A DNA stretch of 64,000 nt from Naegleria gruberi (taxonomy: Eukaryota), in the NCBI GenBank assembly GCA_000004985.1, contig GG738904.1; one strand, written 5' to 3'. The number at the start of each line of letters is the position of its first letter. Position 1 is the first letter of the stretch. Of this stretch, positions 4,591 to 50,656 are shown in pieces. Position numbers and translations under genes: made by a program. The notes under the pieces are model-generated. The model was not told the origin of the DNA. It did not search any database and saw only the letters and a list, made by a program, of their open reading frames with translations.

Positions 4591-6966
4591 TTGTTACAAG
4601 TAACAACACACATCAAATTCCAACACAGAACTCAATATAGCAGAATGATAAGAAAAAACTGGTTAAAAGAAGAAGAAGATCTTTTGGTCAAATTGGTAAA
4701 GGAAAAAGGCCACAATTGGACTGAAATTGCTCCCAACTTCGATGTTACTCCAAATGCCTGCCACAAAAAGTATAAGGATTTGTTAAAGAATCTTGGCAGG
4801 AAAAGATCGTTCTGGACTGATGAAATGAAAGCTAATCTCCTTAAATTAGCAAAAGAATATGCCGATAAAGGAATAGAGAAATGGAAGATTATTGAGGAAA
4901 AATTAGGAAAAGAAGCTAAAGCTTGCCAACAGCATTTTTATTATTTAGTCAAACAGCACGGGTTGGATTCTAATGATTTCAACAGCGTCAGACCATTTTG
5001 GACCATGGAAGAGAAGCGCGAATTGACTGAGTTAGTCAATTTGCATGGAAGGAAGTGGAAGAAAATTGAGAAACTAATTAGCTGCAACAGAGATGCTCAT
5101 TCTTGTCAGAGCCAGTTTATGCTATTAGAAAGTAGACAGAATGATCCAATTGAAAAGAAGTTGAACGATATCTTTCAAGCAACGACTTCAGAGACAGATT
5201 TGAATGAAATCTCTCTTTACGAATTCTTCAATATCCCAACAAGTAGATACAATGGGGTTCCAGCATCGACTTTGTTGGTGGATCAAGCAGATGAAGTTGA
5301 TGAAGAAACATTTCATCGTTCTTACATGGCTGGAGATACTGAATTTAGTGTACGTGAGGTTGCAACTGGTAGATTGGTCAGAAAAACCATTGAGGAGATT
5401 TATCTTTCCAGTGGAACATATGAAACATATAGTATTGAATCTGGATTTAATGTGGAAGAAATTGGTAAGTTTCGTTTCAATTACTATTTTCAAAGAATAA
5501 TAATAATGAAAGAATGTAAATTGTTTCCAGCAAATGAAGTATTAGAGTTGAGTGCTACTTGTTTCAAAGCAAAATTATATTTCAATGAATGTGCTCGAAT
5601 TGTTGAAGAGAAACGTTTCATATTTTCCGAACAAGTTCAAGTCCGTCCAGATGAGTGCAGTAGTGTGAGATTACCTGTATCAGATCTTCAAGACAATATG
5701 TTCATCATTAATAACTATCAATTGAAATCCAAGGAAAAGCTTGTAAGAACATCATTACCATGTGGTCAACTTACTGACACCACCCAAACAAAAGAATGTA
5801 AGTATTTTATGAATTATTCTCATAATATTTTAAAGATTTTGACATTTTGTTCAGAACTTTCCCAACTCTAGTTGACTCCAAAGACAAACAGGGAGTCATG
5901 GTTCAACTATTGGGAGCCTATTTAGCAGATGGTGATGGAGGATACTTTAAATTGTATTTTAATGCCAAAAATGAGCAAGAACTTACCTATTATTTTACAG
6001 ATTTCTTAAAAGAAATTTGTGAATTGAATTCAGAGACAATAAGAGAGGATCTTAAATTCAAGAAAGAGGAAGAGTATGTCACCATTAAGCTCAATGATAA
6101 GAATGCTGACAAGGATATTGAACGAGTCTTACAAAATGGTTATCAAATATCCGGGTCCATACTTGTTGCACCTGCATGGTATGTTTTTCACTTTCAATAC
6201 ATTTTTACTAGTAACAAATAGTACTGGCTTACACAGATTTTTAAAAGAAATAGAATTGTTATGTAATAAGTATAATGGCAGTTACCAAACTAGAAAGAAT
6301 TTCTCTTCCATCTTCAACATTACAAATTTTGGTATGTTTAGCTTGTACAAATTTTTCGAAGGTTCTGTACAAGGAGATGGCACATTAGAGAGTAATCGTG
6401 TAACGTTTGGTCAGAATTGTTCAATTTCAGATACTCACCAACAGTACTTTAATCAGGTCCACCATTGTGCAACCATGCTTGGGTTAAAGACTGGCGTGGG
6501 TAAAGTGTGTGAAGAAACTACAGGTTTGAAAATGACTGGTAAGAACATGACCATTTTTGAAAGTGAAGGACTTGAGAAAAAGAAAGTAAATGCAGATGTT
6601 GTGTTTAGACCATTTAATCTTACAGTTCAAAGATTAATAGGTGAATCAATGAAGAAGATGTACTGTTTCAAGAAGAGTAATCACTCCTTCCCAATGTTTA
6701 ATGGAATGATAGTGCAAAATGTTGATACTGATCTAGTTTCTGCTAAAATATGTTATGGGAATAGATGGGAAATTCGTGAAATGGACAACTATGAATCTGC
6801 TGCCACTTTCTGCTTGAAGAAATATATTGCTTCCTTAGGGTTTCCAAGTGACCGTATGACAAGAAATGCTGTAAGAAGATTAATACTAAAAATAGAAGGA
6901 ATAGTATCTGTTAAAAGAAAGCAAAAATCAAACAAGGAATCAAACAAGAAAGTTAAAACACAATAA
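4591..6966 (+). CDS. Three-repeat Myb/SANT-like protein with a C-terminal LAGLIDADG-like motif region (3 exons inferred)
   Basis: Exon 1 (to ~5797) encodes three W-x19-21-W Myb/SANT repeats (WLKEEEDLLVKLVKEKGHNWTEIAPNF; WTDEMKANLLKLAKEYADKGIEKWKII; WTMEEKRELTELVNLHGRKWKKIEKLI). A GTAAGT donor at 5798 and a tattttaaAG acceptor at 5835 join in frame to FDILFRTFPTLVDSKDKQGVMVQLLGAYLADGDGGYFKLYF, which carries a LAGLIDADG-like hhDGDG motif. A GTATGT donor at ~6179 and aaatAG acceptor at ~6221 join to the 6076..6966 frame. That frame has a weaker second motif, LYKFFEGSVQGDGTL. The true start may be the Met of MIRKNW at ~4645. Confidence 0.5.
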
Positions 6967-7964: not shown

Positions 7965-9035
7965 ATGTCTGATGACCAAAAACAAGAAGAAATTGCTTCG
8001 GAAGAAACCATGGAACATATCGCCCAACTGATCAACAAGGCAAGAAGAGTCGTTGTATTTTCTGGTGCTGGTATGAGTGCAGAGTCTGGAATTGATACTT
8101 TCAGAGGAGGAGGTGGTTTATGGACCGGATTGATGGGAAAATTGTTTTTGGCTTATGGAGGTGAGTGGATTTGTCTTTAAATTCGTGTTTATATATATTG
8201 GATATATTGGATTGTATTTAAAATTATTAAAATTATTTAAATATTATTTGATGGTAATTGATTGGAATAATTTATAAATTAATTATTCGTGTGATGATTA
8301 TATGAATGAATGAATTGATGGAATATGATAATATTAGGAACACCATTTGGATGGAATATAACACCACAGATTTGTTGGGGACAATATATTAAACGATTTT
8401 ATGGACCGATTGCTAAAGCTGATCCAAATAATGGACATTTTGCATTGGCCAAGTTGGAACAAGAAGTGTTTGGAGATTATATGGAAGTTATTACACAAAA
8501 TGTTGATGGATTGCATCAAAGAGCTGGATCAACTCATGTCTATGAAGTGCATGGTACAGTAATGAGACATTGCTGTATTGCTGAACGTCACATTTTCGAT
8601 TTTGATGAATATTGGGGAGAAGAGAATGATGAAAAGAAAATGGACTTGCCAGACAAGTCACCAAAATGCAAACATCCAGGGTGTAATAGTACACTTCGTC
8701 CTGATTGTGTCCTATTTACAGAAGCCCTGCCAATGGACCAATGGGAACCTTCTTTCCATGCAGTTGACAGAATGAGAAAGGGAGATGTCATGATTTGTGT
8801 TGGAACAAGTGCCAAGGTCTATCCAGCTGCTTCACTTCCTGGAAGAGCTGCCAGAAGAGGAGCTCATTTAATTGAATTCAATTTGGAAGAAACAGATTAC
8901 AATCAATTACCGAATTATATATTCGTTAAGGGTCCAAGTGGTCAAACACTTCCAACCATTGTAGATAGAGTAATTGAATTGAGAAATGCAAATCAATCAA
9001 TACCATCGGAAAATATTTCTCAAATTGTAGAATAA
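7965..9035 (+). CDS. NAD-dependent protein deacylase, sirtuin (class III/SIRT5-like), 2 exons
   Basis: Exon 1 is 7965-8160 and contains GAGMSAESGIDTFRGGGGLW, the Sir2 NAD-binding motif. The intron has a GTGAGT donor at 8161 and a ttAG acceptor at 8337 and runs in phase 1. Exon 2 is 8338-9035 with QNVDGLHQRAG, HG, the Zn ribbon CC...CKHPGC...C, and GTSAKVYPAASLP. Confidence 0.8.
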
Positions 9036-9208
9036 TATATTGTAAATATTTTAACACAAAATGTAAAAACCAAATTATTAATAGTATTTAATATTGCTAT
9101 AAATTCAAAGTAGATTTCCTAATATTTCCAATTTTGAACATTCAACTGAACCGCCAAAACAAAATTTGAATCAAAAAAAACAAACAAATTACCACGTGTC
9201 AGACAAAG

Positions 9209-11332
9209 ATGACAGCAGCAACAGCAACGAGTAGTGGAAAGGATTTGCTTGTGCAATGCCTGGGACTTGTTGTCTTTTGTGTGGTGGGTGGTCTTTTCGT
9301 CTACTTTATTCCATCGGAACAATATGGAAAAGAGATGATGAACAAGATGACGAATCACGCAAAGATAAAAGATTTGATGAGTAGATTTACTTCTTTGGAA
9401 AGTAAAATAGTAAAGAAAGATAGAGAAACTATTCGAAATCTTTCACCTTCGTGTAAATTAGCACTTGTCGAGAATAGTTTAAAGACCAAACACGTTTCAC
9501 AATTCTTTTCAAGTATTCTACCAAGTGAAAAGTATGAGAAAATTGCCAACCAACTCTCGGAACAAGTTACAGATCAAACTTTTAACAAGTGTGAAAAACA
9601 AATTGATTTTACCAATTTAAAAATCAATTTGAATTTAGAAAAGTTGAAATCAAATCAAGAAATAGTTATTGATTTGAATTTTATGAAAAAGATGGAAGAA
9701 TTAAGTTTCCTTCAATCTTCATTACAACAAGAGCAACACAGTGGATCATGTTCTCAACGAGTGATTGAATCAATTTTAATTCAGAAAGAGTTGCACGATA
9801 TTTCAACACTTCATAATATTACAACACTCGATAAGGCAGTTAATTTTTATGGTCAATTGTGGCTTAGACAAGATTGTTCTGAATCTATTAGTACTATCAG
9901 CAAGTCGTCAGATTTGTTAAAGGAATATTCTCATTTGGTCAACCAACAGGATGTGGATAAGCTTTACCAATTATTGGATGTTGAACCATCTGATCATTTG
10001 AAACCTTTAGAACCAAGAGTGTTAAAATCAATTTTCCAAGAGCAAGAAAAGAAAATTGTAAATGCACAAATTGACAAGTTGGAAAAGCAAATTACTGAGC
10101 TGAAGAATACCATTGGTGAATTTGAAAATCAATCCAAAATCTTGTCTAGAACCATTTCAGAAAAGGAGAAGGAATACAAGATGTCCCTTGAAAAATCTCA
10201 AGCAGAAAATGACAAACTGCAAGTTTTAATAAGAGAAAAGCAAGTTTCCATCTCATCACTTGAATCCAAGCAAAAATCATTGACAGAAGAAGTGGTGAAT
10301 TATCAACGATCTGTATCTAATCTCAAAAGTGATTTGGAAAAGGAATTTGAGAAATATAAGGCTATCAATTTGAAGAATATTCAATTAGAAGATTCCAATA
10401 ACAAGCTCACTCAAAAATCAAAGGATTTTGAGAATGAAATCAAGAAGAAAATTCCTTCCCTTGAAGAAAATATTCAACTCTTGAATAAGGAAAAGACAAC
10501 AATGGAAAAACAAATTCAAGAACTCAAGAATTCAACCTACACCGATTTGATTTCTGGACGTGAAAAGCTTTTCAAGCAAGCTGAAGTATTACAACAAACT
10601 GGAAAGAATATTGACACTATTGGTGGCTTATTGAATCAATTCAATGAAACTCTTAAAGGAGACGAATCCCTTCGTGAAAGAATTGGACAACTCTTGGATA
10701 AATTAGAAAAACAACAAAAATCTCAAAAGGAATTGGAAGAAATAATGTCAAAATCCAAACATTTGGAAGTGGAAGGAAAGGAATGTTTCAGTGCTCTCAG
10801 CGTTTGTCGTGAAGAAAAGTCCAAACTCCTCAATGATAAGCAAGTTGAAAAGCTAGTTCTCAAAGTTTCTTCATTGGAAAAGAAAATTGAAGCCCTCAAT
10901 CAAGAAAAACAAGAATTAGTTTCCAAAGTTGGAGATTATTCGAATACCATCTCAGAAATTGAGCAGAAAAAGAATGAATCTATCGAAAGATCAGAAAACT
11001 TGTCGACCATTCTTGTGGATTTGAAATTAGAACATGTTGAAGAACAAAAACGAAACAAACTCACCATTGAAACTTTAGAACAAGAATTGAACGAAACAAG
11101 GCAATTACTCAATCAAACATCGACCCAACATTCAACAGAACATACTCAAAATGAACAATTACAAAACGAATTGACCAAAATTAAGGACCAATTTACCACT
11201 TGCCAAACCAGCAGTGAAACCATTCTCGAGGAAAATAGAAAACTTTTATTGGAATTGGAAGAAATTAAGAAGGACTTGGTTATTGCTCAATCTGCAAAGA
11301 TTGTTTCTGATTTGAAAGAGGAAGATAATTAA
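9209..11332 (+). CDS. Coiled-coil protein with N-terminal transmembrane helix (707 aa)
   Basis: The ORF is long with good codon usage. The N-terminus has a TM helix, LLVQCLGLVVFCVVGGLFVYFIPS. The rest is a heptad-rich K/E/Q/L coiled coil. Confidence 0.6.
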   Translation: MTAATATSSGKDLLVQCLGLVVFCVVGGLFVYFIPSEQYGKEMMNKMTNHAKIKDLMSRFTSLESKIVKKDRETIRNLSPSCKLALVENSLKTKHVSQFFSSILPSEKYEKIANQLSEQVTDQTFNKCEKQIDFTNLKINLNLEKLKSNQEIVIDLNFMKKMEELSFLQSSLQQEQHSGSCSQRVIESILIQKELHDISTLHNITTLDKAVNFYGQLWLRQDCSESISTISKSSDLLKEYSHLVNQQDVDKLYQLLDVEPSDHLKPLEPRVLKSIFQEQEKKIVNAQIDKLEKQITELKNTIGEFENQSKILSRTISEKEKEYKMSLEKSQAENDKLQVLIREKQVSISSLESKQKSLTEEVVNYQRSVSNLKSDLEKEFEKYKAINLKNIQLEDSNNKLTQKSKDFENEIKKKIPSLEENIQLLNKEKTTMEKQIQELKNSTYTDLISGREKLFKQAEVLQQTGKNIDTIGGLLNQFNETLKGDESLRERIGQLLDKLEKQQKSQKELEEIMSKSKHLEVEGKECFSALSVCREEKSKLLNDKQVEKLVLKVSSLEKKIEALNQEKQELVSKVGDYSNTISEIEQKKNESIERSENLSTILVDLKLEHVEEQKRNKLTIETLEQELNETRQLLNQTSTQHSTEHTQNEQLQNELTKIKDQFTTCQTSSETILEENRKLLLELEEIKKDLVIAQSAKIVSDLKEEDN

Positions 11333-12286: not shown

Positions 12287-12877
12287 ATGTCGAACACTCT
12301 CACCATTACTGAACCTGTTGTCTATAATTCGAAACAATTGAATGTTTTGAGAGAAATAGTATTAAAATTGAAGAAGGAAGATCCCTCTCAAACAAATATT
12401 GATTTTGGAGACAAGGAACAAGTTTCGAAAATGTTGAAAAACTATTCGAAAGAATGCCACTGTCCTATCTGTTTAGAAGGAGTATTAGAGGAAGGAGGAA
12501 ATCGAATCCTTGCCTGTAAACACTTCATACACGACAATTGCCTTGATCAACTAACAGAAATTCATGGAAAAAACACAAAATGTCCAATTTGTGTTCAACC
12601 TGTATTTCCAAAAAAGGAGAATAACAAGAAACAAGAACAGAAACTAGGTACTGTCTTTTTTACATCATCTTTTTTCTTAATTACTGGCACATGTATTGCG
12701 TATATTGTAAACACACTCAACCAACCAAATTTGGTTACTGAAATTGTCAATTCGTCCACTAGTTCACAAATTGTTGAATCTTGTGCAAACCTATCTTTGG
12801 ATATTGACTATAAATCGTTTACCGATTGTATTAAGCTTGATGGTTTTTCTGGTAATTGCTATTCAACTTTTTTGTAA
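12287..12877 (+). CDS. RING-H2 zinc-finger protein with C-terminal TM segment
   Basis: CPICLEGVLEEGGNRILACKHFIHDNCLDQLTEIHGKNTKCPICVQ is a C3H2C3 RING. It is followed by a hydrophobic helix, FFTSSFFLITGTCIAYIV. Confidence 0.65.
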   Translation: MSNTLTITEPVVYNSKQLNVLREIVLKLKKEDPSQTNIDFGDKEQVSKMLKNYSKECHCPICLEGVLEEGGNRILACKHFIHDNCLDQLTEIHGKNTKCPICVQPVFPKKENNKKQEQKLGTVFFTSSFFLITGTCIAYIVNTLNQPNLVTEIVNSSTSSQIVESCANLSLDIDYKSFTDCIKLDGFSGNCYSTFL

Positions 12878-13000
12878 AGTTACAAATAAAGAAAACGAAA
12901 GAAATTAAAAAAAACAAAAAATAAACTTTTTAAAAAATTGTTAACAAAATTGCGAATTTTATACAAATTTATTTTAATACAAACAACTACAGACAAGTTA

Positions 13001-16010: not shown

Positions 16011-16041
16011 TCAAATGGCCAAGACCTAAAAAATTTGTAAA

Positions 16042-17589
16042 TTACAAATCCAATGACTTTCTGAGAGCAATAAATTCTTCTCTAAAGCATTCAGCATACA
16101 TGTGAATATCTTGAATGATTCCCTTATCGCAAACTATTGATAAACCAACTCGATCGTTAAATGTCATGAGTGTGCAATTGACAGCTACTGCAGATACTAA
16201 TGGAATGAAACCAGCTCCCTGTACAATGTTTCTTCCCAACATGGTATATTTCAACTTGTCGTCTGCTTCAAAACCTTGAACGTTGGAACAGGTGAAGGTT
16301 GTTGAGGCAGCTCCCCAATTCATCAATGAAACTGCCATCTTCTTTGGAAGAAGTGCAGTTCCCAACCACAACAAGTATCTGTTAAAATAGGGCTGTGGAA
16401 GGAACTTGGCAAAATTCATGTTATTCCTCACAGTTTCAAATCTCTTCTGTGGCTCTTCAATGAGTTGAATATTGAGTGGAATGCTACCGAAAATAACGCC
16501 AACAATATTGCCACTCTGTGACTTGCTCTCAGTAGATCTGATATTCACTCCCATTCCCATTCGAGCATTTGTTGTGCTCAATAGTTTTTCCCTCTCTTGC
16601 ATGTTGGATGATTCTTTGGCACTGAGTTTCAATCTGTAACGATCGGAAGCTCCACTCAGCAAGCTCAAGAATAGGTCATTCAATTTTCCATCTAACTTTT
16701 TGGCCACCTTTTTAAATTCTGGCACTGTAAAGTACTTGTCTGTTTCATTTCTCAAATCATTCTCATCATCTCTCAATTGCTCTGTATCATTGAACCAAAT
16801 GAATGAACAAGTGACTTGACCACATTTTGGATGTTTCTTGGAAGCTCTAAACATGGTATCTGGCTCTCCCTTAACGCCAATTCCCAAAATCAAAAAGAAT
16901 GTTGCAACAAAGGCCAAAATCTTCAAAAAGAATCCAATGCAATAGCTCACCAAAGAACCCAACAATGGAATCCTGTTCAATTTTCCTGTCAAATTATTAA
17001 TAATGGTCAATGCTGAATTCCAATTGCTGTGACTACCTTTCATAATCTTGTCAAATTTACTCTGAACATATTCACTTGCCTCCTTCTCATTATCCAACAG
17101 GTCAGTTCCAACAATTTTCTGCAACAAGGTTCCATCTCCAATCCAATGATGAATTCTAAAGAATAGAATCAATCCTCTCGAATAATTTTCAATAACAATA
17201 CATTCCCATAATGGAATAACTCCCTTCACTTGTGAATTTTCCACAGGTTTGAAGGGAGAAAACAATCTTGAACCAATCAATTCACTCAAAATCTCATCCT
17301 CACTCTTTTCCTTGCTCAAATTCAACATTTCATACTTGACATGATTCTCCAAACATACTTCATCAACTCCAATATCAATATACTCTGATTCACTCACTAG
17401 AATACTTCTGAATCGAACATATCTTTGTAAAAGTCTTTCCTTTAATCGTTCTTCAAATGCTTTCCTATCAATCCGATGAATTTTCTCCTCAATATTGTTG
17501 TTGTTGTCATCTTTGGCTGATAATAAAACCAATCCTCCTACAACACATGGTGTTGTCTCGGATTCTTGCATGACCATCAATTGGGACAT
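16042..17589 (-). CDS. WS/DGAT-family acyl-CoA acyltransferase (wax ester synthase/diacylglycerol acyltransferase-like)
   Basis: The 515-aa ORF has the HHxxxDG catalytic motif (FFRIHHWIGDGTLL) at the WS/DGAT position, about 140 aa from the N-terminus. The length and C-terminal region resemble DUF1298. Confidence 0.5.
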   Translation of the reverse strand: MSQLMVMQESETTPCVVGGLVLLSAKDDNNNNIEEKIHRIDRKAFEERLKERLLQRYVRFRSILVSESEYIDIGVDEVCLENHVKYEMLNLSKEKSEDEILSELIGSRLFSPFKPVENSQVKGVIPLWECIVIENYSRGLILFFRIHHWIGDGTLLQKIVGTDLLDNEKEASEYVQSKFDKIMKGSHSNWNSALTIINNLTGKLNRIPLLGSLVSYCIGFFLKILAFVATFFLILGIGVKGEPDTMFRASKKHPKCGQVTCSFIWFNDTEQLRDDENDLRNETDKYFTVPEFKKVAKKLDGKLNDLFLSLLSGASDRYRLKLSAKESSNMQEREKLLSTTNARMGMGVNIRSTESKSQSGNIVGVIFGSIPLNIQLIEEPQKRFETVRNNMNFAKFLPQPYFNRYLLWLGTALLPKKMAVSLMNWGAASTTFTCSNVQGFEADDKLKYTMLGRNIVQGAGFIPLVSAVAVNCTLMTFNDRVGLSIVCDKGIIQDIHMYAECFREEFIALRKSLDL

Positions 17590-24928: not shown

Positions 24929-25509
24929 TTTCGAATACAATTTTGTAAATAGTAAAAATAAATAAAATAATTTAATTCATAATATTGTTGATGATACAGT
25001 GGAGGTTGAAAATGCAATTACAAGTTGTGGTTGTTTGAAAATTTATGGAGCTTGTCAGAGGGTAAATACTGACATGTACAGTTGACAAGATCTTGAGTAA
25101 TAATGAAGATCTTTTGGAGTTTAGAATCAATTTTGTTAACACTTACAATTGGATGTTTCTCATCCTCTTCGATCTGAGCTTTACAGCAAGTAATATTTCC
25201 AAAAATAGCTATTGTTTGCAATGTTAAAAAAATTAATGAGACACATTTTCGATATTTTGTTTAAAATTACCTCAAATGCAAGGTGGAAAAACAAAATTAT
25301 TTCTTTTAAGGTCTAAGTGTTTCATAATATGTCTGTTGCCAACAACCTGCCAATCCACTACAAATTAAATCTGCACAGCTTTTGAAAATAACATTTTGCG
25401 TCTAAACCACACGCCCCAACAAAAAAAATGCAACAAACAAGAATGCTTCACTCATCACCCAACCATTCCCACAACACCAACAACAAAAAAATCACAATAT
25501 TAATTCATC

Positions 25510-26389
25510 ATGAGCAAAGGTATAAACAAATCATCAGTAAGTAACCATATAAACAAGTACTCTAATAATTATAAAAGAACACTAAGAAGAAAACTAACAC
25601 CAAGACAACTGTGAAGAAAACCAACACCAAGAACACTGTGAAGAATACCAATACCAAGAACACTGTGAAGAACACTGTGAAGAACACCAATAAGAAGAAT
25701 ACCATCAAAAAGAAGAATCCAAAGCGTAAGTGTTATTGTTATTTATTAATTTACTAACATTGTTAATAGTTGCTCGGGAAGTTGTCAATTACACAACTGT
25801 GAATGCCAAATGGTTCCTTTATGCTCCAACCACCACCGAAAGTGGTTTCAAAGCTACATTTATTCCAGTCAGTGGTCCATTTAACAGAGTTGAAGAAATG
25901 AAACGAGTTGCTTGTTTGCAAATGTTTTGTGAAAGTTGTGCTATAACTTTGGGTTTTTATTTGGATCCAAGTATGTTCAAAAGATTTCAAACTGGTATTC
26001 GTATTGCATCATTGAAACCTGAATGGTTCTCTCATTATTTCGAGTCATGTGGTGGAAAAATGAAAAACAGAGTTCAATATATTCGTTACAATGGTCACAG
26101 TTTGAGTATTACTTGTCCTTCTTATGAATTCTATGGTTTGGAAAATATGCCACCTTTGAATTGTAATGGTAGTTATGCAAGCACGGTTTTTCAAGTTTCC
26201 CAACCAATATTGATGAACCATCCATTTCAACCACACTTTAAATGGATTGAACAGTGGAAATTTGTTTACAGATTGTATTTCTCTAAACTCGTATTTATAT
26301 GCAATCCAGTAACGAATATGGTTTCAGTAGATTTGGAATTTACAAAGGATGTACAAAGTATGGATTGTACTGGTTTCCAAATTGTTTAA
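25510..26389 (+). CDS. Hypothetical protein with N-terminal K/N/T-rich tandem-repeat region, 3 exons
   Basis: Exon 1 is 25510-25536 (MSKGINKSS). A 41-nt GTAAGT intron follows. Exon 2 is 25578-25725 and encodes (NTVKNT)n repeats from a 21-nt DNA tandem repeat, aacactgtgaagaa(c/t)accaa. A 44-nt intron with a ttTACTAACat branch site follows. Exon 3 is 25770-26389 and has no recognised domain. Confidence 0.5.
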
Positions 26390-26399
26390 TAAATAATTT

Positions 26400-26879
26400 T
26401 TATTCATTAAAATCAATTAATGACAAGTCACATTCTTCTCGTTTCAATTTCAAGAATAGCACATTATTGAACTTGAATGGATTTTCTGCTAAATTGTCTG
26501 TTGTATCAACATGAACAAATAAAGACTTGAAGGCTCTATTTTCTGCATACAAAATTGAATTTAAAGAGTAAAGTTTTAATCTTCGGGTTGCAGAGGGTAA
26601 ATCAAATACTTCACGTAGAATTTTCAAATATTTAGTATCTGTAAATTCTACAACACCTTCATCCTCATCAATTCCATAATCAATCAAAGTTCTTTTTAAT
26701 TCATCCATTAGAGCTCTTGGATTAACAATAGATGGTTTCATAACACAATTCGGAATATACAGATGATCATAAAATTGATCATCTGTAATTTCTTCTCCTT
26801 CACAACAAATCATAACTACGGGCAATTCGTAAATGGTGTTATAAATAGGAATTATATTGGCTTCAGCAACACGAGGCAT
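26400..26879 (-). CDS. Hypothetical protein (160 aa; the extended N-terminus in the ORF track is translation of the upstream repeat)
   Basis: The likely start is MPRVAEANIIPIYNT. The ORF track extends it through the 78-bp repeat, which is probably 5'UTR or promoter. Confidence 0.4.
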   Translation of the reverse strand: MPRVAEANIIPIYNTIYELPVVMICCEGEEITDDQFYDHLYIPNCVMKPSIVNPRALMDELKRTLIDYGIDEDEGVVEFTDTKYLKILREVFDLPSATRRLKLYSLNSILYAENRAFKSLFVHVDTTDNLAENPFKFNNVLFLKLKREECDLSLIDFNE

Positions 26880-26890
26880 TTTGTCAGTTA

Positions 26891-26968
26891 AAATATTTGA
26901 TCGTCGATTCCCCGTGCCAGTGTTGTGGTAGTAAAAGTGATTCCGTAATCGACTCTCAAAAAAACTGA
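26891..26968. repeat. Direct repeat copy 1 (~78 bp), immediately 5' of the H3-variant ATG
   Basis: aaaatatttgatcgtcgattccccgtgccagtgttgtggtagtaaaagtgattccgtaatcgactctcaaaaa matches 30545-30622 with 4 mismatches. It contains an internal inverted repeat, gtcgattcc...(g)gaatcgac. Confidence 0.7.
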
Positions 26969-26971
26969 AAA

Positions 26972-27532
26972 ATGACTCAAACTTCTTCATCAACAGCAGA
27001 AACATCTACAGAAACCTCGGAAGTTCCAAACAACACATCAACCAAAACACCATCAACAACACCATCAAAAACACTATCAAAAACATCAACCAAAACACCA
27101 TCAAAAACATCAACCAAAACACCATCAAAAACACCAAGAAAAACACCAAGAAAAACACCAAAAAAAACACCAGCAAAGAAATCTGCAAAAAAACCATTCA
27201 CAGGAGGAATTAAAAAGCCACACAGATATAGACCAGGTACTGTAGCTTTAAGAGAAATCCGAAAGTATCAAAAAAGCACTGAATTATTGATAAAAAAAAA
27301 ACCTTTTTGTAGGTTGGTGAGAGAAGTTGCTCAAGATTACAAATCTGATGTTAGATTTCAAGCGAATTCACTCCTTGCACTTCAAGAAGCAGCTGAGGCA
27401 TTTATTATTGATATTTTTGAGGATACTAATCTTTGTGCCATTCACTCCAAAAGAGTTACTATTTTGCTCAAAGATATGCAACTTGCATTAAGAGTAAAAG
27501 GTGTTAATTATATTGGTTTATTAAATAAATAA
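26972..27532 (+). CDS. Histone H3 variant with extended repetitive N-terminal tail
   Basis: The histone fold [94 protein letters not shown] is near-identical in layout to canonical H3. The N-tail is replaced by (K)[22 protein letters not shown] repeats. The gene has no intron. Confidence 0.8.
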
Positions 27533-27565
27533 TATTAATCATCATCATTTAATATCTTTAAAAAA

Positions 27566-27749
27566 ATGTCTTGTACTTTAGAAGATATTTTTCAAGACAC
27601 ACAATTCAAAAAGTTCAACGATAAAGGAAAACCGTATTGTGAAGGAGTTGTACATTTAAAACAAGAAGACTTATACAAATTTTTAGGAATAAAAGAAGTT
27701 AAAAAGAAAAGGATATTAGAAACCTCCGAATTAAATCGATGTAAAAATG
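27566..27749 (+). CDS. SAM-domain-like N-terminal ORF running into the assembly gap (partial)
   Basis: MSCTLEDIFQDTQFKKFNDKGKPYCEGVVHLKQEDLYKFLGIKEVKKKRIL shows the SAM pattern L..DL..LGI....R..IL. The ORF continues as X because of the N run. Confidence 0.4.
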
Positions 27750-28919
27750 NNNNNNNNNNNNNNNNNNNNNNNNNNNNNNNNNNNNNNNNNNNNNNNNNNN
27801 NNNNNNNNNNNNNNNNNNNNNNNNNNNNNNNNNNNNNNNNNNNNNNNNNNNNNNNNNNNNNNNNNNNNNNNNNNNNNNNNNNNNNNNNNNNNNNNNNNNN
27901 NNNNNNNNNNNNNNNNNNNNNNNNNNNNNNNNNNNNNNNNNNNNNNNNNNNNNNNNNNNNNNNNNNNNNNNNNNNNNNNNNNNNNNNNNNNNNNNNNNNN
28001 NNNNNNNNNNNNNNNNNNNNNNNNNNNNNNNNNNNNNNNNNNNNNNNNNNNNNNNNNNNNNNNNNNNNNNNNNNNNNNNNNNNNNNNNNNNNNNNNNNNN
28101 NNNNNNNNNNNNNNNNNNNNNNNNNNNNNNNNNNNNNNNNNNNNNNNNNNNNNNNNNNNNNNNNNNNNNNNNNNNNNNNNNNNNNNNNNNNNNNNNNNNN
28201 NNNNNNNNNNNNNNNNNNNNNNNNNNNNNNNNNNNNNNNNNNNNNNNNNNNNNNNNNNNNNNNNNNNNNNNNNNNNNNNNNNNNNNNNNNNNNNNNNNNN
28301 NNNNNNNNNNNNNNNNNNNNNNNNNNNNNNNNNNNNNNNNNNNNNNNNNNNNNNNNNNNNNNNNNNNNNNNNNNNNNNNNNNNNNNNNNNNNNNNNNNNN
28401 NNNNNNNNNNNNNNNNNNNNNNNNNNNNNNNNNNNNNNNNNNNNNNNNNNNNNNNNNNNNNNNNNNNNNNNNNNNNNNNNNNNNNNNNNNNNNNNNNNNN
28501 NNNNNNNNNNNNNNNNNNNNNNNNNNNNNNNNNNNNNNNNNNNNNNNNNNNNNNNNNNNNNNNNNNNNNNNNNNNNNNNNNNNNNNNNNNNNNNNNNNNN
28601 NNNNNNNNNNNNNNNNNNNNNNNNNNNNNNNNNNNNNNNNNNNNNNNNNNNNNNNNNNNNNNNNNNNNNNNNNNNNNNNNNNNNNNNNNNNNNNNNNNNN
28701 NNNNNNNNNNNNNNNNNNNNNNNNNNNNNNNNNNNNNNNNNNNNNNNNNNNNNNNNNNNNNNNNNNNNNNNNNNNNNNNNNNNNNNNNNNNNNNNNNNNN
28801 NNNNNNNNNNNNNNNNNNNNNNNNNNNNNNNNNNNNNNNNNNNNNNNNNNNNNNNNNNNNNNNNNNNNNNNNNNNNNNNNNNNNNNNNNNNNNNNNNNNN
28901 NNNNNNNNNNNNNNNNNNN
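27750..28919. other. Assembly gap (N run, ~1170 nt)
   Basis: A continuous run of n. ORF-track proteins made of X (27566..28951, 27592..28938, front of 27747..30545) are artefacts of the gap. Confidence 0.95.
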
Positions 28920-30545
28920 TTACATACTGTTCACACAAGAAAACAGAATGATAAAGTATGTGTAGATAAATTACCAGAAAAAGTAATGATTAAATTGTCA
29001 ATGGATGGTAGAGAATTTGGAAATTTACGAACAGTTGTAGTTACTTTGAATATTTTAAATTTACATTTATTCGGAACACAAGAAAGAGACTGTGTTTTCC
29101 CAATTCTAATGTATATAGGTGAAGAGAAAGATATTATTAATTATATAACTGAAATTGAAAAAGAAGTTATTGAACTTTCTACCAAACATATTACTATCAA
29201 AGAAAACGAGCATGATGCTACACTATCACTTGAAAATACAACCCAAACAATTCCATTAGAATTCTATTGGGTGAGTGATTTAAAATCACTTGAATATTGT
29301 TCATTATTGAAAGAACATGCTATGTTTTGTCCTTTCTGCAACATTAAGAAACAAAATTCATTGTCTGGGATTTGTTCTGAAAATAGTAGAAATTTACAAC
29401 ACAAAATGGGTGTTAAATCATCCAATATTTTCATATGCATTTTGCATATGGATGAACGAATTACTGAATATATTTTGAAAATGACCTTAAAAACTTCGGA
29501 ACTTGAAAAGCAAATGAAAACCAATATTTGTTCATTAGAAGGTTTTGCTGATTTTAATTTTCATTCATCAAGTGTTTTAGTGAAAGATACAATCGAAGAA
29601 GAAAATGCTCTCACAGTTAAGGAATATTCATTTATGTTATCTGGCGGGCATTGTAATAAGCTTTTTGGATCTTTTGATAAAGTTTTTGGATTTTTGAAAG
29701 ATTCAAACTCAAATATGTATAATATTTGGAAAAAATACAAATCAATTAGACAGTGGTTGTATTATACAAATGAAGATTTGGAAAAGAAATCATTAAAGGA
29801 TTGGGAAAATTTTGATTCTGAGTTAAATGAATGGAGATTGCTTTTTGTTCTACAAAAAGCTGATAGTGGAAGAATAGGAGATTACATTCATATTGCCACT
29901 GCACATCTTTATGACTTGCTTTCAACTTATGGAAGTCTGGTTCCTCTTTCAAATCAAGGTGTAGAAAGTTCTCATCAATTAGATTGTTTGATTATGGAAA
30001 GAGGGACAAGTAAGGGTAAAATGTCTATTGGTACCAAAAAAGCTCAAGCTGGCTCCTCAAAACCAAACGTGGAAACTGTATCCAAACCTGCTTCCCATAC
30101 TCTTGAGTCTAGTGATCTTGATAATGAGCAAGAACATAAGGAATTTAATTATGAATCATTTATTAAGAAGACAGAATCTTGTGACTGGAATGATTTATTC
30201 CAAGTTTGTCAAATCATGCTGAAGAAACTTAGAAAGTTGTATTTATCTTTTACTTGTGAAGAAGTACTATTTGTCCGGTTAGAAAGAAGGACTGGTAAGG
30301 TAATAAGAAAAGATTGGACAAGAGACATTTTAACTATGTCTCCCAACTTTACTCTGCCTATCCGAAAACCAACCAATGTTCTCATTCAAAAACCAGATAA
30401 CATTAACACTGAAGTGATATCTCCACAGCTTGCTCCATCCCAAGATGTTCCTAAAAGAACAGTTGAACTCAAACAATCCCAGGAATATGGATTGGTTGTG
30501 AATGGTGATGATGATGGGTTGATGAATGATGATGTCTTCTATTAA
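28920..30545 (+). CDS. Large uncharacterised ORF emerging from the gap (C-terminal ~540 aa), possibly the same gene as the SAM ORF
   Basis: The ORF is open from the gap edge: ...IKLSMDGREFGNLRTVVVTLNILN...CVFPILMYIGEEKD...FCPFC...ICILHMDE.... It has a C/H cluster but no confidently recognised domain, and an acidic tail. It is flanked by the 78-bp direct repeats. Confidence 0.45.
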   Translation, partial: LHTVHTRKQNDKVCVDKLPEKVMIKLSMDGREFGNLRTVVVTLNILNLHLFGTQERDCVFPILMYIGEEKDIINYITEIEKEVIELSTKHITIKENEHDATLSLENTTQTIPLEFYWVSDLKSLEYCSLLKEHAMFCPFCNIKKQNSLSGICSENSRNLQHKMGVKSSNIFICILHMDERITEYILKMTLKTSELEKQMKTNICSLEGFADFNFHSSSVLVKDTIEEENALTVKEYSFMLSGGHCNKLFGSFDKVFGFLKDSNSNMYNIWKKYKSIRQWLYYTNEDLEKKSLKDWENFDSELNEWRLLFVLQKADSGRIGDYIHIATAHLYDLLSTYGSLVPLSNQGVESSHQLDCLIMERGTSKGKMSIGTKKAQAGSSKPNVETVSKPASHTLESSDLDNEQEHKEFNYESFIKKTESCDWNDLFQVCQIMLKKLRKLYLSFTCEEVLFVRLERRTGKVIRKDWTRDILTMSPNFTLPIRKPTNVLIQKPDNINTEVISPQLAPSQDVPKRTVELKQSQEYGLVVNGDDDGLMNDDVFY

Positions 30546-30622
30546 AAATATTTGATCGTCGATTCCCCGTGCCAGTGTTGTGGTAGTCAAAGCGATTCCG
30601 GAATCGACTTTCAAAAATTCAA
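30545..30622. repeat. Direct repeat copy 2 (~78 bp), immediately 3' of the large 28920-30545 ORF
   Basis: The same element as copy 1. It is also followed within 10 bp by an ATG, here opening only a 21-codon ORF. Confidence 0.7.
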
Positions 30623-31038
30623 TAAAATGTGCCATCAAATAAAATTTTATCAAAGGCCTTTATTGTTAGAAATAATAATTATTATTTAAATATTAAACAT
30701 TGTTACTTCATATAATCAAATTAAAAGCATGTTAAATGTTTAATATATAACAAATAATAACTGTAATAATCGGAATTGTAAAATTCTGGAAGATTTTAAA
30801 CAGTAGTGGTTTTAATTGGTTCAAAAAGTGGCAAAAAAAAATTTGGCGCAAAGAGCGGTCGACAATTTGTCGAGTCTTGCTGAATGGTTATTTTCAACTC
30901 TAGATTTGTAGTGTGAAAAGCAAACATTCAATTTCAAAATCTCTTTTACCCGAATGGCCTTTTGCGGTTAGAGCTCGTTATCACGCACTTGCTCAAGAAT
31001 CATTTTGAAAAAAAAACTTTACGAAACTTGCCTAAACC

Positions 31039-32448: not shown

Positions 32449-32768
32449 AAAACTGAATAGTTTTCTACGACTATTTAATATTATTCAATGTATGAGCAAC
32501 CAAAGGATGATTTTATCTGTTGAAATATAGGAAACTAATTATTTGTGACCGAAACTTTGTAATTTGAAATATGAGTCGAAAAGTTAATTTGTAAATTGAA
32601 TCAAATTTTGACAAAGTGAATCAGTGAAGGTTTCATTAGGGGAAATCAGATTTCCATCCAAATTTGGAACCTTACATCTAACTTTTTGAGTTTGTTCCAA
32701 ATGAAAAACTATTCGAAATGGTTTAAATTAGCACCATGGTGGTTGAACTATGCTATCCAACAAAAAAA

Positions 32769-33740
32769 ATGAAAACAAATCTAATCTTTTCAATTGCAAT
32801 TCTACTCTTACTCGCAATCCTCTCAGTTCAAGCAACTGACAGCTATCAAACTAAACCTCCAGTTGTCGTAGTTGACAAGTATCACAAGCCAAAGCATTGT
32901 AAGAGAAAATGCTTAAAGCACAAGTGGATTAAGAAGTGTTTGAAACACAAACTCGTCGGTCAAAAGAAGGTCTGTGATCAATATGCCATTGTCGGTGCTG
33001 GCAAATGTCTCAAACATAAGAAATATTCCAAATGTGACAAGTACAGTAAGGCAACAAAGAAGTGTGTCTTGCATGCATACAAGACTGTTGGATGCGCCAA
33101 GAAGAAGTATTGGAAAGTTTGCGATTCTTATGGAACTAAGAAGATTTGCATCAAGAAGGGTTTCAAGAAGTTCTGTGCCAAGTACAAGATTATCAACAAG
33201 TGCGTCAAGAAGGGATATAAGAAGGTCTGTAAGAAATTCAAGAAGGTTCCAATCAAGAAGTGTGAAAAGAAGAAGGTCTGCGACAAATACACTGTTGATT
33301 CTTACAATAAGAAGGTCGCCAAATGTAGATATGTTAAAAAGTGCAAGATTGTTTCATGGGCAAAGAAATGCGCCAAGTATAAGAAGGTTAAATATTGTAA
33401 GGAGAGAAAATCAGTTAAGAAGTGTTGTCTCATTAAGAAGAAATTCTTCTGTGCCAAGCATAAGACCATCAAATTCTGTAAGCACAAGAAGACTATTTCC
33501 AAATGTGTCAAATATCAAAAGAAGAAGTATTGTGCCAAGACAATTATTATTCCACCAAGATGTATCAAGAAGAAGTATTATAAGAAGTGTTTGAAACGTT
33601 CAAAGGGTAAGAAGATTTGTAAGAAATTCAAATTTGTTGGTGGAAAGAAGAAGTGTTGCAAGTCAATCAAGAAGAAGATTTGTATCAAGAGAAAGACATG
33701 TAAGAAGTCATCAAAACCAATCGTTACACCATCCTTGTAA
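32769..33740 (+). CDS. Secreted, extremely Lys/Cys-rich protein (signal peptide + ~300 aa of KKC-type repeats)
   Basis: The signal peptide is MKTNLIFSIAILLLLAILSVQA. Then come ~48 Cys spaced 6-10 residues apart in K-rich context (CLKHK, KKCVKKGYKKVCKKFKK...). The predicted pI is extreme. The ORF track starts 11 codons upstream at 32736. Confidence 0.6.
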   Translation: MKTNLIFSIAILLLLAILSVQATDSYQTKPPVVVVDKYHKPKHCKRKCLKHKWIKKCLKHKLVGQKKVCDQYAIVGAGKCLKHKKYSKCDKYSKATKKCVLHAYKTVGCAKKKYWKVCDSYGTKKICIKKGFKKFCAKYKIINKCVKKGYKKVCKKFKKVPIKKCEKKKVCDKYTVDSYNKKVAKCRYVKKCKIVSWAKKCAKYKKVKYCKERKSVKKCCLIKKKFFCAKHKTIKFCKHKKTISKCVKYQKKKYCAKTIIIPPRCIKKKYYKKCLKRSKGKKICKKFKFVGGKKKCCKSIKKKICIKRKTCKKSSKPIVTPSL

Positions 33741-33783: not shown

Positions 33784-33856
33784 AATCAAATATAAAAATT
33801 AATTCGCCCACCGTGGGGGTCGAACCCACGACCACAAGGTTAAGAGCCTTGCGCTC
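33784..33856 (-). tRNA. tRNA-Lys (anticodon CTT)
   Basis: The minus-strand sequence GCCCGTCTAGCTCAGTCGGTAGAGCGCAAGGCTCTTAACCTTGTGGTCGTGGGTTCGACCCCCACGGTGGGC(g) folds as a canonical cloverleaf with a 7-bp acceptor stem, a GTTCGA T-loop and a CT-CTT-AA anticodon loop. It closely resembles eukaryotic tRNA-Lys-CTT. Confidence 0.85.
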
Positions 33857-34316
33857 TACCGACTGAGCTAGACGGGCTACATGTTCATGATAAACGTATA
33901 CTATTGATAGTCTTTACCTTTCTCAAATGATTTTAATAGTTAATTGACAGTCATTTCCATAAACCAAACTGGTTCTTGAACTGCCCTCATCACATGCACA
34001 ATAATATTCCTCACAATATGATATAATTATTGGACTATCAGAATGTGAAACAACGTTTCCCAAAACAATTGAATGGCAGGAACCTCCAAATCAGTCAATA
34101 TTTCATAAAACATGCCATCCTTTACAATCAGCATTAAATTCCTCATCTCTCCAACAATTTCTTCATAAAATCTTCTCAAATAAACAGAAGTAGCATTTTT
34201 GCGATATTCTGAGAAGAAGGGAAATATAAAATCGAGAATGTTTAATAAATCATCATGGCGATGAACATTTTTTATATAAAAATTTTAAAAAGACTTTTTG
34301 AAATTGATTTGAATAA

Positions 34317-50584: not shown

Positions 50585-50656
50585 GGGACCATGGTCTAGT
50601 GGTATGATTCTCGCTTTGGGTGCGAGAGGCCGTGGGTTCGATTCCCACTGGTCCCC
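50585..50656 (+). tRNA. tRNA-Pro (anticodon TGG)
   Basis: GGGACCATGGTCTAGTGGTATGATTCTCGCTTTGGGTGCGAGAGGCCGTGGGTTCGATTCCCACTGGTCCC has a 7-bp acceptor stem GGGACCA/TGGTCCC and a GGTTCGATTCC T-arm. The anticodon loop is TT-TGG-GT. It is highly similar to eukaryotic tRNA-Pro. Confidence 0.85.

Follow-up and report, generated by a model that had tools for sequence, protein, structure and literature searches.

Paired palindromic repeats inside a putative Transib/RAG1-like transposon of Naegleria gruberi that carries a histone H3 variant

Results

Two palindromic repeats flank a histone H3 variant gene and a gene split by an assembly gap

We analysed 64 kb of Naegleria gruberi DNA (contig GG738904.1 of assembly GCA_000004985.1; the whole stretch is called the window hereafter), in which a sequence-only reading had noticed two direct repeats of about 78 bp. 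These repeats bracket a histone H3 variant gene, a supposed SAM-domain open reading frame (ORF), an assembly gap and a large uncharacterised ORF. In our annotation, the locus comprises from left to right a gene of about three exons that we named X (25510..26389, plus strand), an orphan ORF of 159 aa on the minus strand (26400..26879), the first repeat (copy 1), the H3 variant (26972..27532, plus strand), a gene that we named Y (27566..30545, plus strand), which is interrupted by the gap, and the second repeat (copy 2). Gene Y resembles the transposases of the Transib/RAG1 group, and the repeats turned out to lie inside a unit that has inverted termini of its own.

Repeat finding in the window recovered the pair, described earlier as lying about 3.65 kb apart, at 26890–26974 and 30545–30629 (85 nt, 89% identity, direct orientation, offset 3655 nt), with an identity of about 95% over the 78-nt core. 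A blastn comparison of the two copies gave 94.5% identity across 73 nt, and a 34-nt core occurs exactly twice in the 64 kb, against zero expected occurrences. The inverted repeat seen inside each copy was confirmed and is longer than the 9 bp first reported: each copy forms an imperfect palindrome with arms of 20 nt (AATATTTGATCGTCGATTCC / GGAATCGACTTTCAAAAATT; 85% complementary), and the arm consensus reads TTGANCGTCGAWT. Both copies folded better as RNA than shuffled sequences did (z-scores −2.1 and −3.7 for copies 1 and 2, respectively).

Copy 1 is part of a strandless palindrome, E1 (26880..26974, with the repeat proper at 26890–26974), whose arms are centred on GTCGATT / AATCGAC. E1 makes up the complete 92-bp intergenic region (26880–26971) that separates the H3 variant from the orphan ORF, its divergent neighbour. 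In agreement with the earlier observation, copy 1 is also upstream of the minus-strand ORF, whose ATG lies 10 nt to its left. The mirror symmetry of E1 reaches both start codons, which in N. gruberi have the contexts CATTTTGTCAG / CTGAAAAATG. Copy 2 corresponds to palindrome E2 (30545..30629, likewise strandless), the first base of which is also the final one of the Y stop codon. As had been noted, an ATG follows each copy, opening the H3 variant after copy 1 and just 21 codons after copy 2.

No Rfam family matched the repeats at the gathering threshold, and none was found at E ≤ 1 across 25300–31000. Two tRNAs were all that Rfam returned at the gathering threshold in the whole window and all that ARAGORN predicted there, and both are unrelated to the repeats. 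Searched with blastn against related loci, the repeat gave short chance matches only, and apart from the repeat pair itself no sequence was found to be duplicated.

Gene Y encodes a RAG1/Transib-like transposase

The ORF to the right of the gap (28920–30545) is 100% identical to N. gruberi NAEGRDRAFT_73321. Y alone had no match in Pfam or PDB. Relatives of Y are present in Willaertia magna and in metagenome contigs, and an exhaustive profile search retrieved 220 representative ones. We aligned 48 sequences of the family and used this alignment for profile, motif and AlphaFold work. In PDB, the resulting profile matched amphioxus RAG1L (6b40, 2.1e-9), zebrafish RAG1 (3jbw, 4.9e-9) and mouse RAG1 (4e-6), as well as HzTransib from Helicoverpa (6pqn, 5e-7) over nearly its full length (profile 100–524 versus chain 9–441). 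The Pfam family RAG1 was matched by three family members (best 1.9e-7), and one member showed a weak match to Transposase_21. In the alignment, C137, Y322, H324, H329 and E349 are invariant, and D29, D120, C140, C173 and H176 are conserved in at least 90% of the sequences. The motif pattern reads D..D..C(2)C..H(4)H..E, the signature of the CACTA/Mirage/Chapaev/Transib/RAG1 (CMCT) clade (PMC12730594).

The AlphaFold (AF2) model built on the same alignment reached a pLDDT of 77 and a pTM of 0.76, with a core above 90. When PDB was searched with this model using Foldseek, the top 38 matches were all RAG1 (E down to 4e-10, probability 1.00), and the next fold was Hermes at 1e-3. The structural similarity to RAG1 is moderate, with a TM of about 0.45 over about 420 columns. 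The distances from the second D to the CxxC (17 residues) and from the second H to the E (20 residues) are presumably close to those of RAG1. By profile matches, motifs and predicted fold, Y is a RAG1/Transib-like DDE transposase. A Fanzor/TnpB omega-RNA reading of the locus, suggested by the structured element that directly follows the ORF, was dropped, since Y is without a TnpB/OrfB match in Pfam and matches RAG1 instead. Among more distant relatives of Y (P0010, P0014), some are fused to an Ulp1 (Peptidase_C48) protease domain, and one has a fungal Zn(2)-Cys(6) domain.

The assembly gap noted before spans 27750–28919 (1170 N) and separates this ORF from another one of 61 codons (27566–27748), which starts 33 nt after the H3 stop codon. 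Because Y starts 10–13 nt past the histone stop and runs for 942–1070 codons in gap-free relatives, the two ORFs are most likely parts of one gene Y of about 950–1000 aa, judging by position and size only. The Y core in the window aligns from residue 393–466 of the proteins of gap-free relatives, and the gap would hide about 330–400 codons. Comparison of the 61-codon ORF with the N-termini of full-length relatives was not significant (hidden Markov model score 0.3, with shuffles reaching 8.2). It was this short ORF that had been taken to encode a SAM domain, an assignment that we could not reproduce: it matched no Pfam family at E ≤ 0.1, and the full-length homologues P0002, P0006 and P0007 are also without a SAM match.

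The inverted termini of the unit lie outside the repeats

To locate the ends of the unit, we compared the sequence upstream of X with that downstream of Y in each related locus, and the best inverted matches all began with CAC. In the very AT-rich Willaertia loci, generic inverted-repeat finding was uninformative, and the ends were found with the CAC terminus as a probe. In the window, the left terminal inverted repeat (TIR; 25356..25392, plus strand) consists of CACTACAAAT, a 16-nt spacer and TTGAAAATAAC, and the right one (30887..30913, minus strand) reads CACTACAAAT, a 6-nt spacer and TTGAAAATAAC on the minus strand. This bipartite pattern has two sites only in the 64 kb, which are in inverted orientation, compared to zero expected. 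The left end lies about 155 nt upstream of the start of X, similar to the other loci. Delimited in this way, the unit (25356–30913) measures 5558 bp including the gap and has a P450 gene on one side and an RGS-domain gene on the other.

All 12 ends compared, which come from seven related loci, start with the 8-nt sequence CAC[T/A]ACAA, and the five complete elements have identical ends of 10–12 nt. Besides the unit in the window, these elements are found in L006 (CACTACAAACCA, a spacer of 21/11 nt and TGTCTTTCGCT, at 159 and 6064), in N. lovaniensis (L004; CACAACAATTTA, at 8104 and 13014), in L005 (CACAACAAATTA, at 4663 and 11174) and in Willaertia (L001; CACTACAATTTA, at 9177 and 17238). In four of the five (window, L006, L005 and L001), the second block of the left end is set 10–11 nt farther inward than that of the right end.

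Because the CAC...GTG inverted termini lie outside both repeats, enclosing X and the minus-strand ORF too, the 78-bp repeats are, by sequence comparison, internal to the element and not its ends. A candidate reading of the repeat as the 3′ TIR, via CACAACAC in its loop, was dropped once the real termini had been found outside the repeat.

The X–Y pair is conserved and accompanied by alternative cargo

X has introns near 25537–25577 and 25726–25769, read by eye with GTAAGT...TACTAAC...TAG visible, and no Pfam match or other known domain. Using tblastn and blastp, we found it to be 31–45% identical to the gene directly upstream of Y in L001, L002, L003, L004, L005 and L006. In eight loci (two from Willaertia, one from N. 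lovaniensis, a second N. gruberi-type paralogue and four metagenome contigs), a homologue of X, or a positional equivalent where homology is undetectable, stands directly upstream of Y by 15–131 nt. Its coordinates are 9306–9947 in L001, 3–248 in L002, 9189–9977 in L003, 8402–9064 in L004, 4871–5509 in L005, about 297–1023 in L006 and 200–889 in L007. X encodes 210–260 aa on the same strand as Y and has spliceosomal introns in N. gruberi and L006. From this comparison, the adjacency of X and Y is ancestral. X occupies the position that an accessory subunit would have but is too small for a Kelch-type RAG2. A scan of JGI metagenomes for further loci yielded no confirmed relative.

In the window, X and Y are 1176 bp apart, a distance filled by the minus-strand ORF, copy 1 and the H3 variant. 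The order X, minus-strand ORF, palindrome, H3, Y, second palindrome is also present in L006 and in N. lovaniensis L004, and the genes of these histone-bearing loci are tightly packed, with 1–33 nt between them.

The histone call of the earlier reading was borne out by Pfam (Histone, 4e-37), and the gene is annotated as 'histone H3 [Naegleria gruberi]'. The protein has a gap-free histone fold of canonical length, is 67% identical to human H3.1 and has a novel N-terminal tail of Thr/Ser/Pro/Lys repeats. We rejected its identification as CenH3, which is marked by a lengthened loop 1 and a divergent histone fold, given the gap-free fold and the 67% identity to H3.1; only the tail is novel. Orthologues with 55–58% identity over about 145 aa were found by tblastn in L006 (also matching Pfam Histone) and L004; a homologue search with the H3 variant was swamped by canonical H3 and H3 doublets. 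The divergent orphan ORF recurs at the same position and on the same strand in L006 (32% identity over 114 aa) and N. lovaniensis L004 (27% over 118 aa). It is unannotated, has no Pfam match, and found no homologue, not even itself, in a search of 5.8 billion proteins. Neither the orphan ORF (9066–9485, minus strand) nor the H3 variant (9563–9997, plus strand) of N. lovaniensis L004 is among the called genes, so that this cargo is under-annotated. The N-terminal regions of X (25575–25726) and of the H3 variant (26984–27223) contain A/C-rich coding repeats of 12/27 nt, which the repeat finder linked (families D2 and D3) and which encode Lys/Thr/Asn or Thr/Pro/Ser/Lys tails.

Histone-less elements have a Tet-like dioxygenase gene (Tet/JBP-like 2OG-Fe(II)) between Y and the right end, inside the terminal repeats. 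In L005, this gene (9906–10925, minus strand) matched the structures of Naegleria Tet1 (5cg8 and 4lt5, E=2.7e-12), and in L001 an HxD...H gene (16029–17077, plus strand) is found at the same place. Because of this location within the terminal repeats of histone-less relatives, some Naegleria Tet-like genes may be transposon cargo.

Outside the unit, just downstream of the RGS gene, the window encodes a repetitive Lys/Cys-rich protein of 334 aa with a signal-peptide-like start (32736–33740, plus strand). This gene is followed by tRNA-Lys(CTT) (33805–33877, minus strand); the other tRNA of the window is tRNA-Pro(TGG) (50585–50656, plus strand).

The palindromes recur in relatives, and their arms co-vary

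The layout with two palindromes at the same two positions was also found in L006 and N. lovaniensis L004. In L006, E1 (1453–1531, CCATTTTTTAGGGTGTCGAATG...CATTCGACACCCTAAAAAATGG) has perfect arms of 22 nt that span from the start codon of the minus-strand ORF to that of the histone, and E2 (5156–5218, TTTTAGGGTGTCGATTTAA...TTAAATCGACACCCTAAAA) has perfect arms of 19 nt and lies 19 nt past the Y stop. The 6.3-kb L006 contig has four GTCGAWT/AWTCGAC sites only, which are the four arms. In N. lovaniensis L004, E1 (about 9487–9563, TTGAGCGTCGAAT...TTTGGACGCACAA) separates the two divergent start codons, and E2 (about 12824–12895, TTGACCGTCCAAT...ATCGACGGTCAA) overlaps the Y stop. In all three species, E1 is the sole non-coding DNA between two divergent start codons (71–92 bp), and in L006, as in N. 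gruberi, its symmetry takes in the start-codon contexts (CCATTTTTTAGGGTGTCGAATG / CATTCGACACCCTAAAAAATGG).

The GTCGAWT core is common to the three species, and the outer arm positions vary between species yet remain complementary. Across the six palindromes compared, 85% of the arm positions pair, and 6 of 16 pairs show compensatory, both-sided changes. None of 500 shuffles reached the observed values, and slid registers paired at 32–53%. The loops, in contrast to the arms, range from 25 to 48 nt and cannot be aligned between species; in L006 they also differ between the two copies of the same element. Identical loops in both copies are found in N. gruberi only, which suggests that its copies were homogenised recently. 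Histone-less relatives are without GTCGAWT palindromes, and the palindromic element would therefore go with the histone cargo module and not with the transposase as such. A further small candidate element, the palindrome GGTCGACAATTTGTCGAG (30857..30874, strandless), contains GTCGA and lies about 45 nt inside the right end of the unit. It shares GTCGACAATT with L006 5567–5583 (5571), where the sequence also lies between E2 and the right end.

These comparisons bear on how the repeats arose. That direct repeats bracket 3.65 kb, and that each resembles a miniature inverted-repeat element, would fit terminal direct repeats, attachment-like sites, independent insertions of miniature inverted-repeat transposable elements (MITEs) bounding a composite unit, or the edges of a segmental duplication. 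We give hardly any credence to this group of explanations: the inverted termini enclose X and the minus-strand ORF beyond the copies, the X–Y adjacency is ancestral in eight loci, and the same two palindrome positions in three organisms exclude independent MITEs and a recent segmental duplication. Moreover, the 64 kb hold no further copy and no other duplicated sequence. The segmental duplication that the sequence-only reading had considered thus finds no counterpart here, with nothing else duplicated and a layout that is inherited. Its suggestion of a mobile unit with a captured histone held in one part, as there is a mobile-element-like unit that carries a histone, and failed in another, as the repeats thought to be its ends are internal, the termini being at 25356 and 30913.

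Candidate functions of the two palindromes

We consider it rather probable that the repeats are two copies of an internal palindromic cis-element (E) of a 5.6-kb Transib/RAG1-like transposon (25356–30913), and that copy 1 is likely a promoter or leader. Because copy 1 fills the divergent intergenic region and is symmetric up to both start codons, it most likely acts as a symmetric bidirectional promoter and 5′ leader, providing both cargo genes with the same upstream sequence. The rightward transcript from copy 1 probably also covers Y, since Y starts so close to the H3 stop that there is no room for a promoter of its own. In N. gruberi, the two copies would have been made alike in recent time, probably because gene conversion overwrote copy 2 with copy 1; this would explain the 95% identity, the copied AAAATG and the meaningless 21-codon ORF. 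Copy 2 itself is probably a second promoter, outward or antisense, or the 3′ boundary of the H3–transposase transcription unit; further candidates are a hairpin at the 3′ end of the transposase mRNA and a protein-binding boundary that is paired with copy 1. The duplicated promoter or 5′-leader module proposed by the earlier reading is thus the best description of copy 1, palindromic from start codon to start codon, and a plausible one of copy 2.

In MuDR (Mutator), identical terminal inverted repeats are the promoters of the element's genes. By analogy, a repeated sequence inside the transposon may serve as a promoter module for element genes here. Unlike in MuDR, where the promoters are the TIRs, the repeats in the window are internal, in direct orientation and each palindromic.

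Alternatively, the palindromes could be binding or synapsis sites for a protein of the element (the transposase, X or the orphan ORF product), either aiding or regulating transposition, as pairs of inverted motifs in an internal or subterminal position, or bounding an alternative excisable H3–Y cassette, a possibility that recalls the TNPA motifs of En/Spm, which are inverted and subterminal. Conserved, co-varying arms around drifting loops of 25–48 nt would suit such sites, as would the fact that, in three organisms, precisely H3 and Y lie between the copies. The arms are also more alike within than between genomes, as if one protein recognised both, and the GTCGA core appears again in the small palindrome near the right end. 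We nevertheless consider this explanation unlikely, since the arms are unlike both the CAC termini and their second blocks, histone-less relatives with the same kind of transposase and termini have no palindromes, and E1 adjoins two start codons, which a pure binding site does not require.

The position of copy 2, which in all three species begins at the Y stop or no more than about 20 nt from it, also raises the possibility of an RNA hairpin, namely a stem–loop in the 3′ untranslated region of the transposase mRNA that acts as a terminator, processing or stability signal, and that would also be located 5′ in the H3–Y transcript if this started inside the minus-strand ORF. The predicted stems, which are stable (−22 kcal/mol for copy 2, z −3.7; −32 and −33 kcal/mol in L006), and the compensatory nature of the arm changes agree with it. 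On the other hand, two divergent genes have their 5′ ends at copy 1, so that the full hairpin is expected in neither mRNA, no G–U asymmetry favours one strand, the mismatches are pyrimidine–pyrimidine, G–G or C–C, and Rfam gave no match, which makes a hairpin distinctly unlikely. We therefore rank promoter or leader first, binding site for an element protein second and RNA hairpin third.

Several points weigh against the promoter-bearing transposon that we favour. Promoter activity is something that we infer from the arrangement of the sequence, and a protein-bound inverted site, a DNA cruciform or an RNA hairpin would equally be expected to show arms that co-vary around free loops. The covariation set comprises six sequences from three organisms, with an arm alignment anchored by hand. 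Copy 2 has no conserved gene to drive, being followed by 21 codons in N. gruberi, by an unconserved ORF of 105–121 aa in L006 and by 120 bp to the right end in N. lovaniensis, so that a pure promoter model leaves its conserved arms unexplained. In addition, target-site duplications are missing from all five complete elements (flanks CAATC/TGAAA, AACAC/AAGAG, ACTGG/AATTA, CATGT/GAAAA and GACTT/AAAAA; in the window, 25351–25355 and 30914–30918 were examined), and every element seems to have just one copy per genome. The unit might be an old, possibly domesticated, locus.

With respect to mobility, the genes flanking the N. gruberi and N. lovaniensis clusters are unrelated and there is no flanking synteny, a neighbour-joining tree of Y interleaves histone-bearing with histone-less loci, and at least two diverged Y lineages coexist in N. 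gruberi-type genomes. A mobile element family would give such a picture, and the unit may be mobile on these grounds. The right flanks of the five complete elements are A-rich (TGAAA, AAGAG, AATTA, GAAAA and AAAAA). No second copy of the element and no MITE was found in the 64-kb window, the extent searched; a 210-bp MITE candidate (16367–16576) was rejected, as it shares just 8 nt. Together with the missing target-site duplications, this speaks against canonical transposition that is still under way.

Discussion

The core of Y is homologous in sequence profile and fold to Transib, RAG1 and RAG1L (Kapitonov & Jurka 2005, PMC1131882; ProtoRAG; HzTransib). Transib TIRs consist of a heptamer, a spacer and a nonamer and have ends resembling the recombination signal sequences RSS12 and RSS23 (PMC1131882). 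Similarly, the ends in the window start with CAC and are bipartite, a spacer of variable length separating the terminal block from a second block that is partly A-rich, and the difference of about 10–11 nt between the spacers of the element's two ends is reminiscent of RSS12/RSS23. Unlike the Transib/RAG1 systems, however, the family resides in a heterolobosean amoeba, its Y protein has about 950–1070 aa and no direct Pfam match, the gene directly upstream is a small conserved X and not a Kelch-type RAG2, and the cargo consists either of an H3 variant plus an orphan ORF or of a Tet-like dioxygenase. The heptamer at the ends reads CAC[T/A]ACA and not CACAATG or CACAGTG. In further contrast to Transib, a 5-bp target-site duplication is missing in five of five elements, and each lineage appears single-copy per genome. 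Because of the missing duplication, we class the family as Transib-like and not as canonical Transib.

A second comparison is with fungal CMCT transposons, which carry TET genes (PMC12730594). Those elements and the family described here share a chromatin or epigenetic cargo, with a Tet-like dioxygenase inside the TIRs of the histone-less relatives. They differ in that our PDB and Pfam matches are to RAG1/Transib, that the cargo in the window is a histone and not TET, and that the host is not a fungus. In the full-text literature (Repbase not covered), we found no link of Transib/RAG1-like transposases to Naegleria and no transposon-borne histone H3. By its sequence, the lineage would be Transib-like and combine a partner gene and chromatin-related cargo with co-varying palindromes in its interior, while target-site duplications are not visible.

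A more far-reaching scenario is that the unit is a long-lived, single-copy and possibly domesticated RAG1-like recombination system of a deep-branching eukaryote, which would act on the 12/23-like asymmetric termini, on the paired palindromes around the H3–transposase cassette or on both, rearranging DNA by excision, inversion or other means without target-site duplications, while the H3 variant or the Tet-like dioxygenase remodels the chromatin of the element to escape silencing or to license recombination. We regard this as very unlikely.

RAG1, which assembles the antigen-receptor genes of vertebrates, descends from Transib-type transposases, and Transib or RAG-like elements have been described from animals such as fruit flies, mosquitoes, sea urchin and starfish. 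The locus analysed here shows a RAG1-fold transposase family in Heterolobosea (Naegleria and Willaertia), with ends whose spacers differ by about one helical turn. The 78-bp repeats with which the analysis began represent a conserved, co-varying palindrome that is employed twice within the element. For a mobile element, bringing along a histone would be an uncommon means of manipulating its chromatin. Should the findings be confirmed, the family would provide a distant outgroup for the origin of the 12/23 rule and of the arrangement of RAG1 with a partner gene, as well as a possible origin for some of the Tet-like genes of Naegleria.

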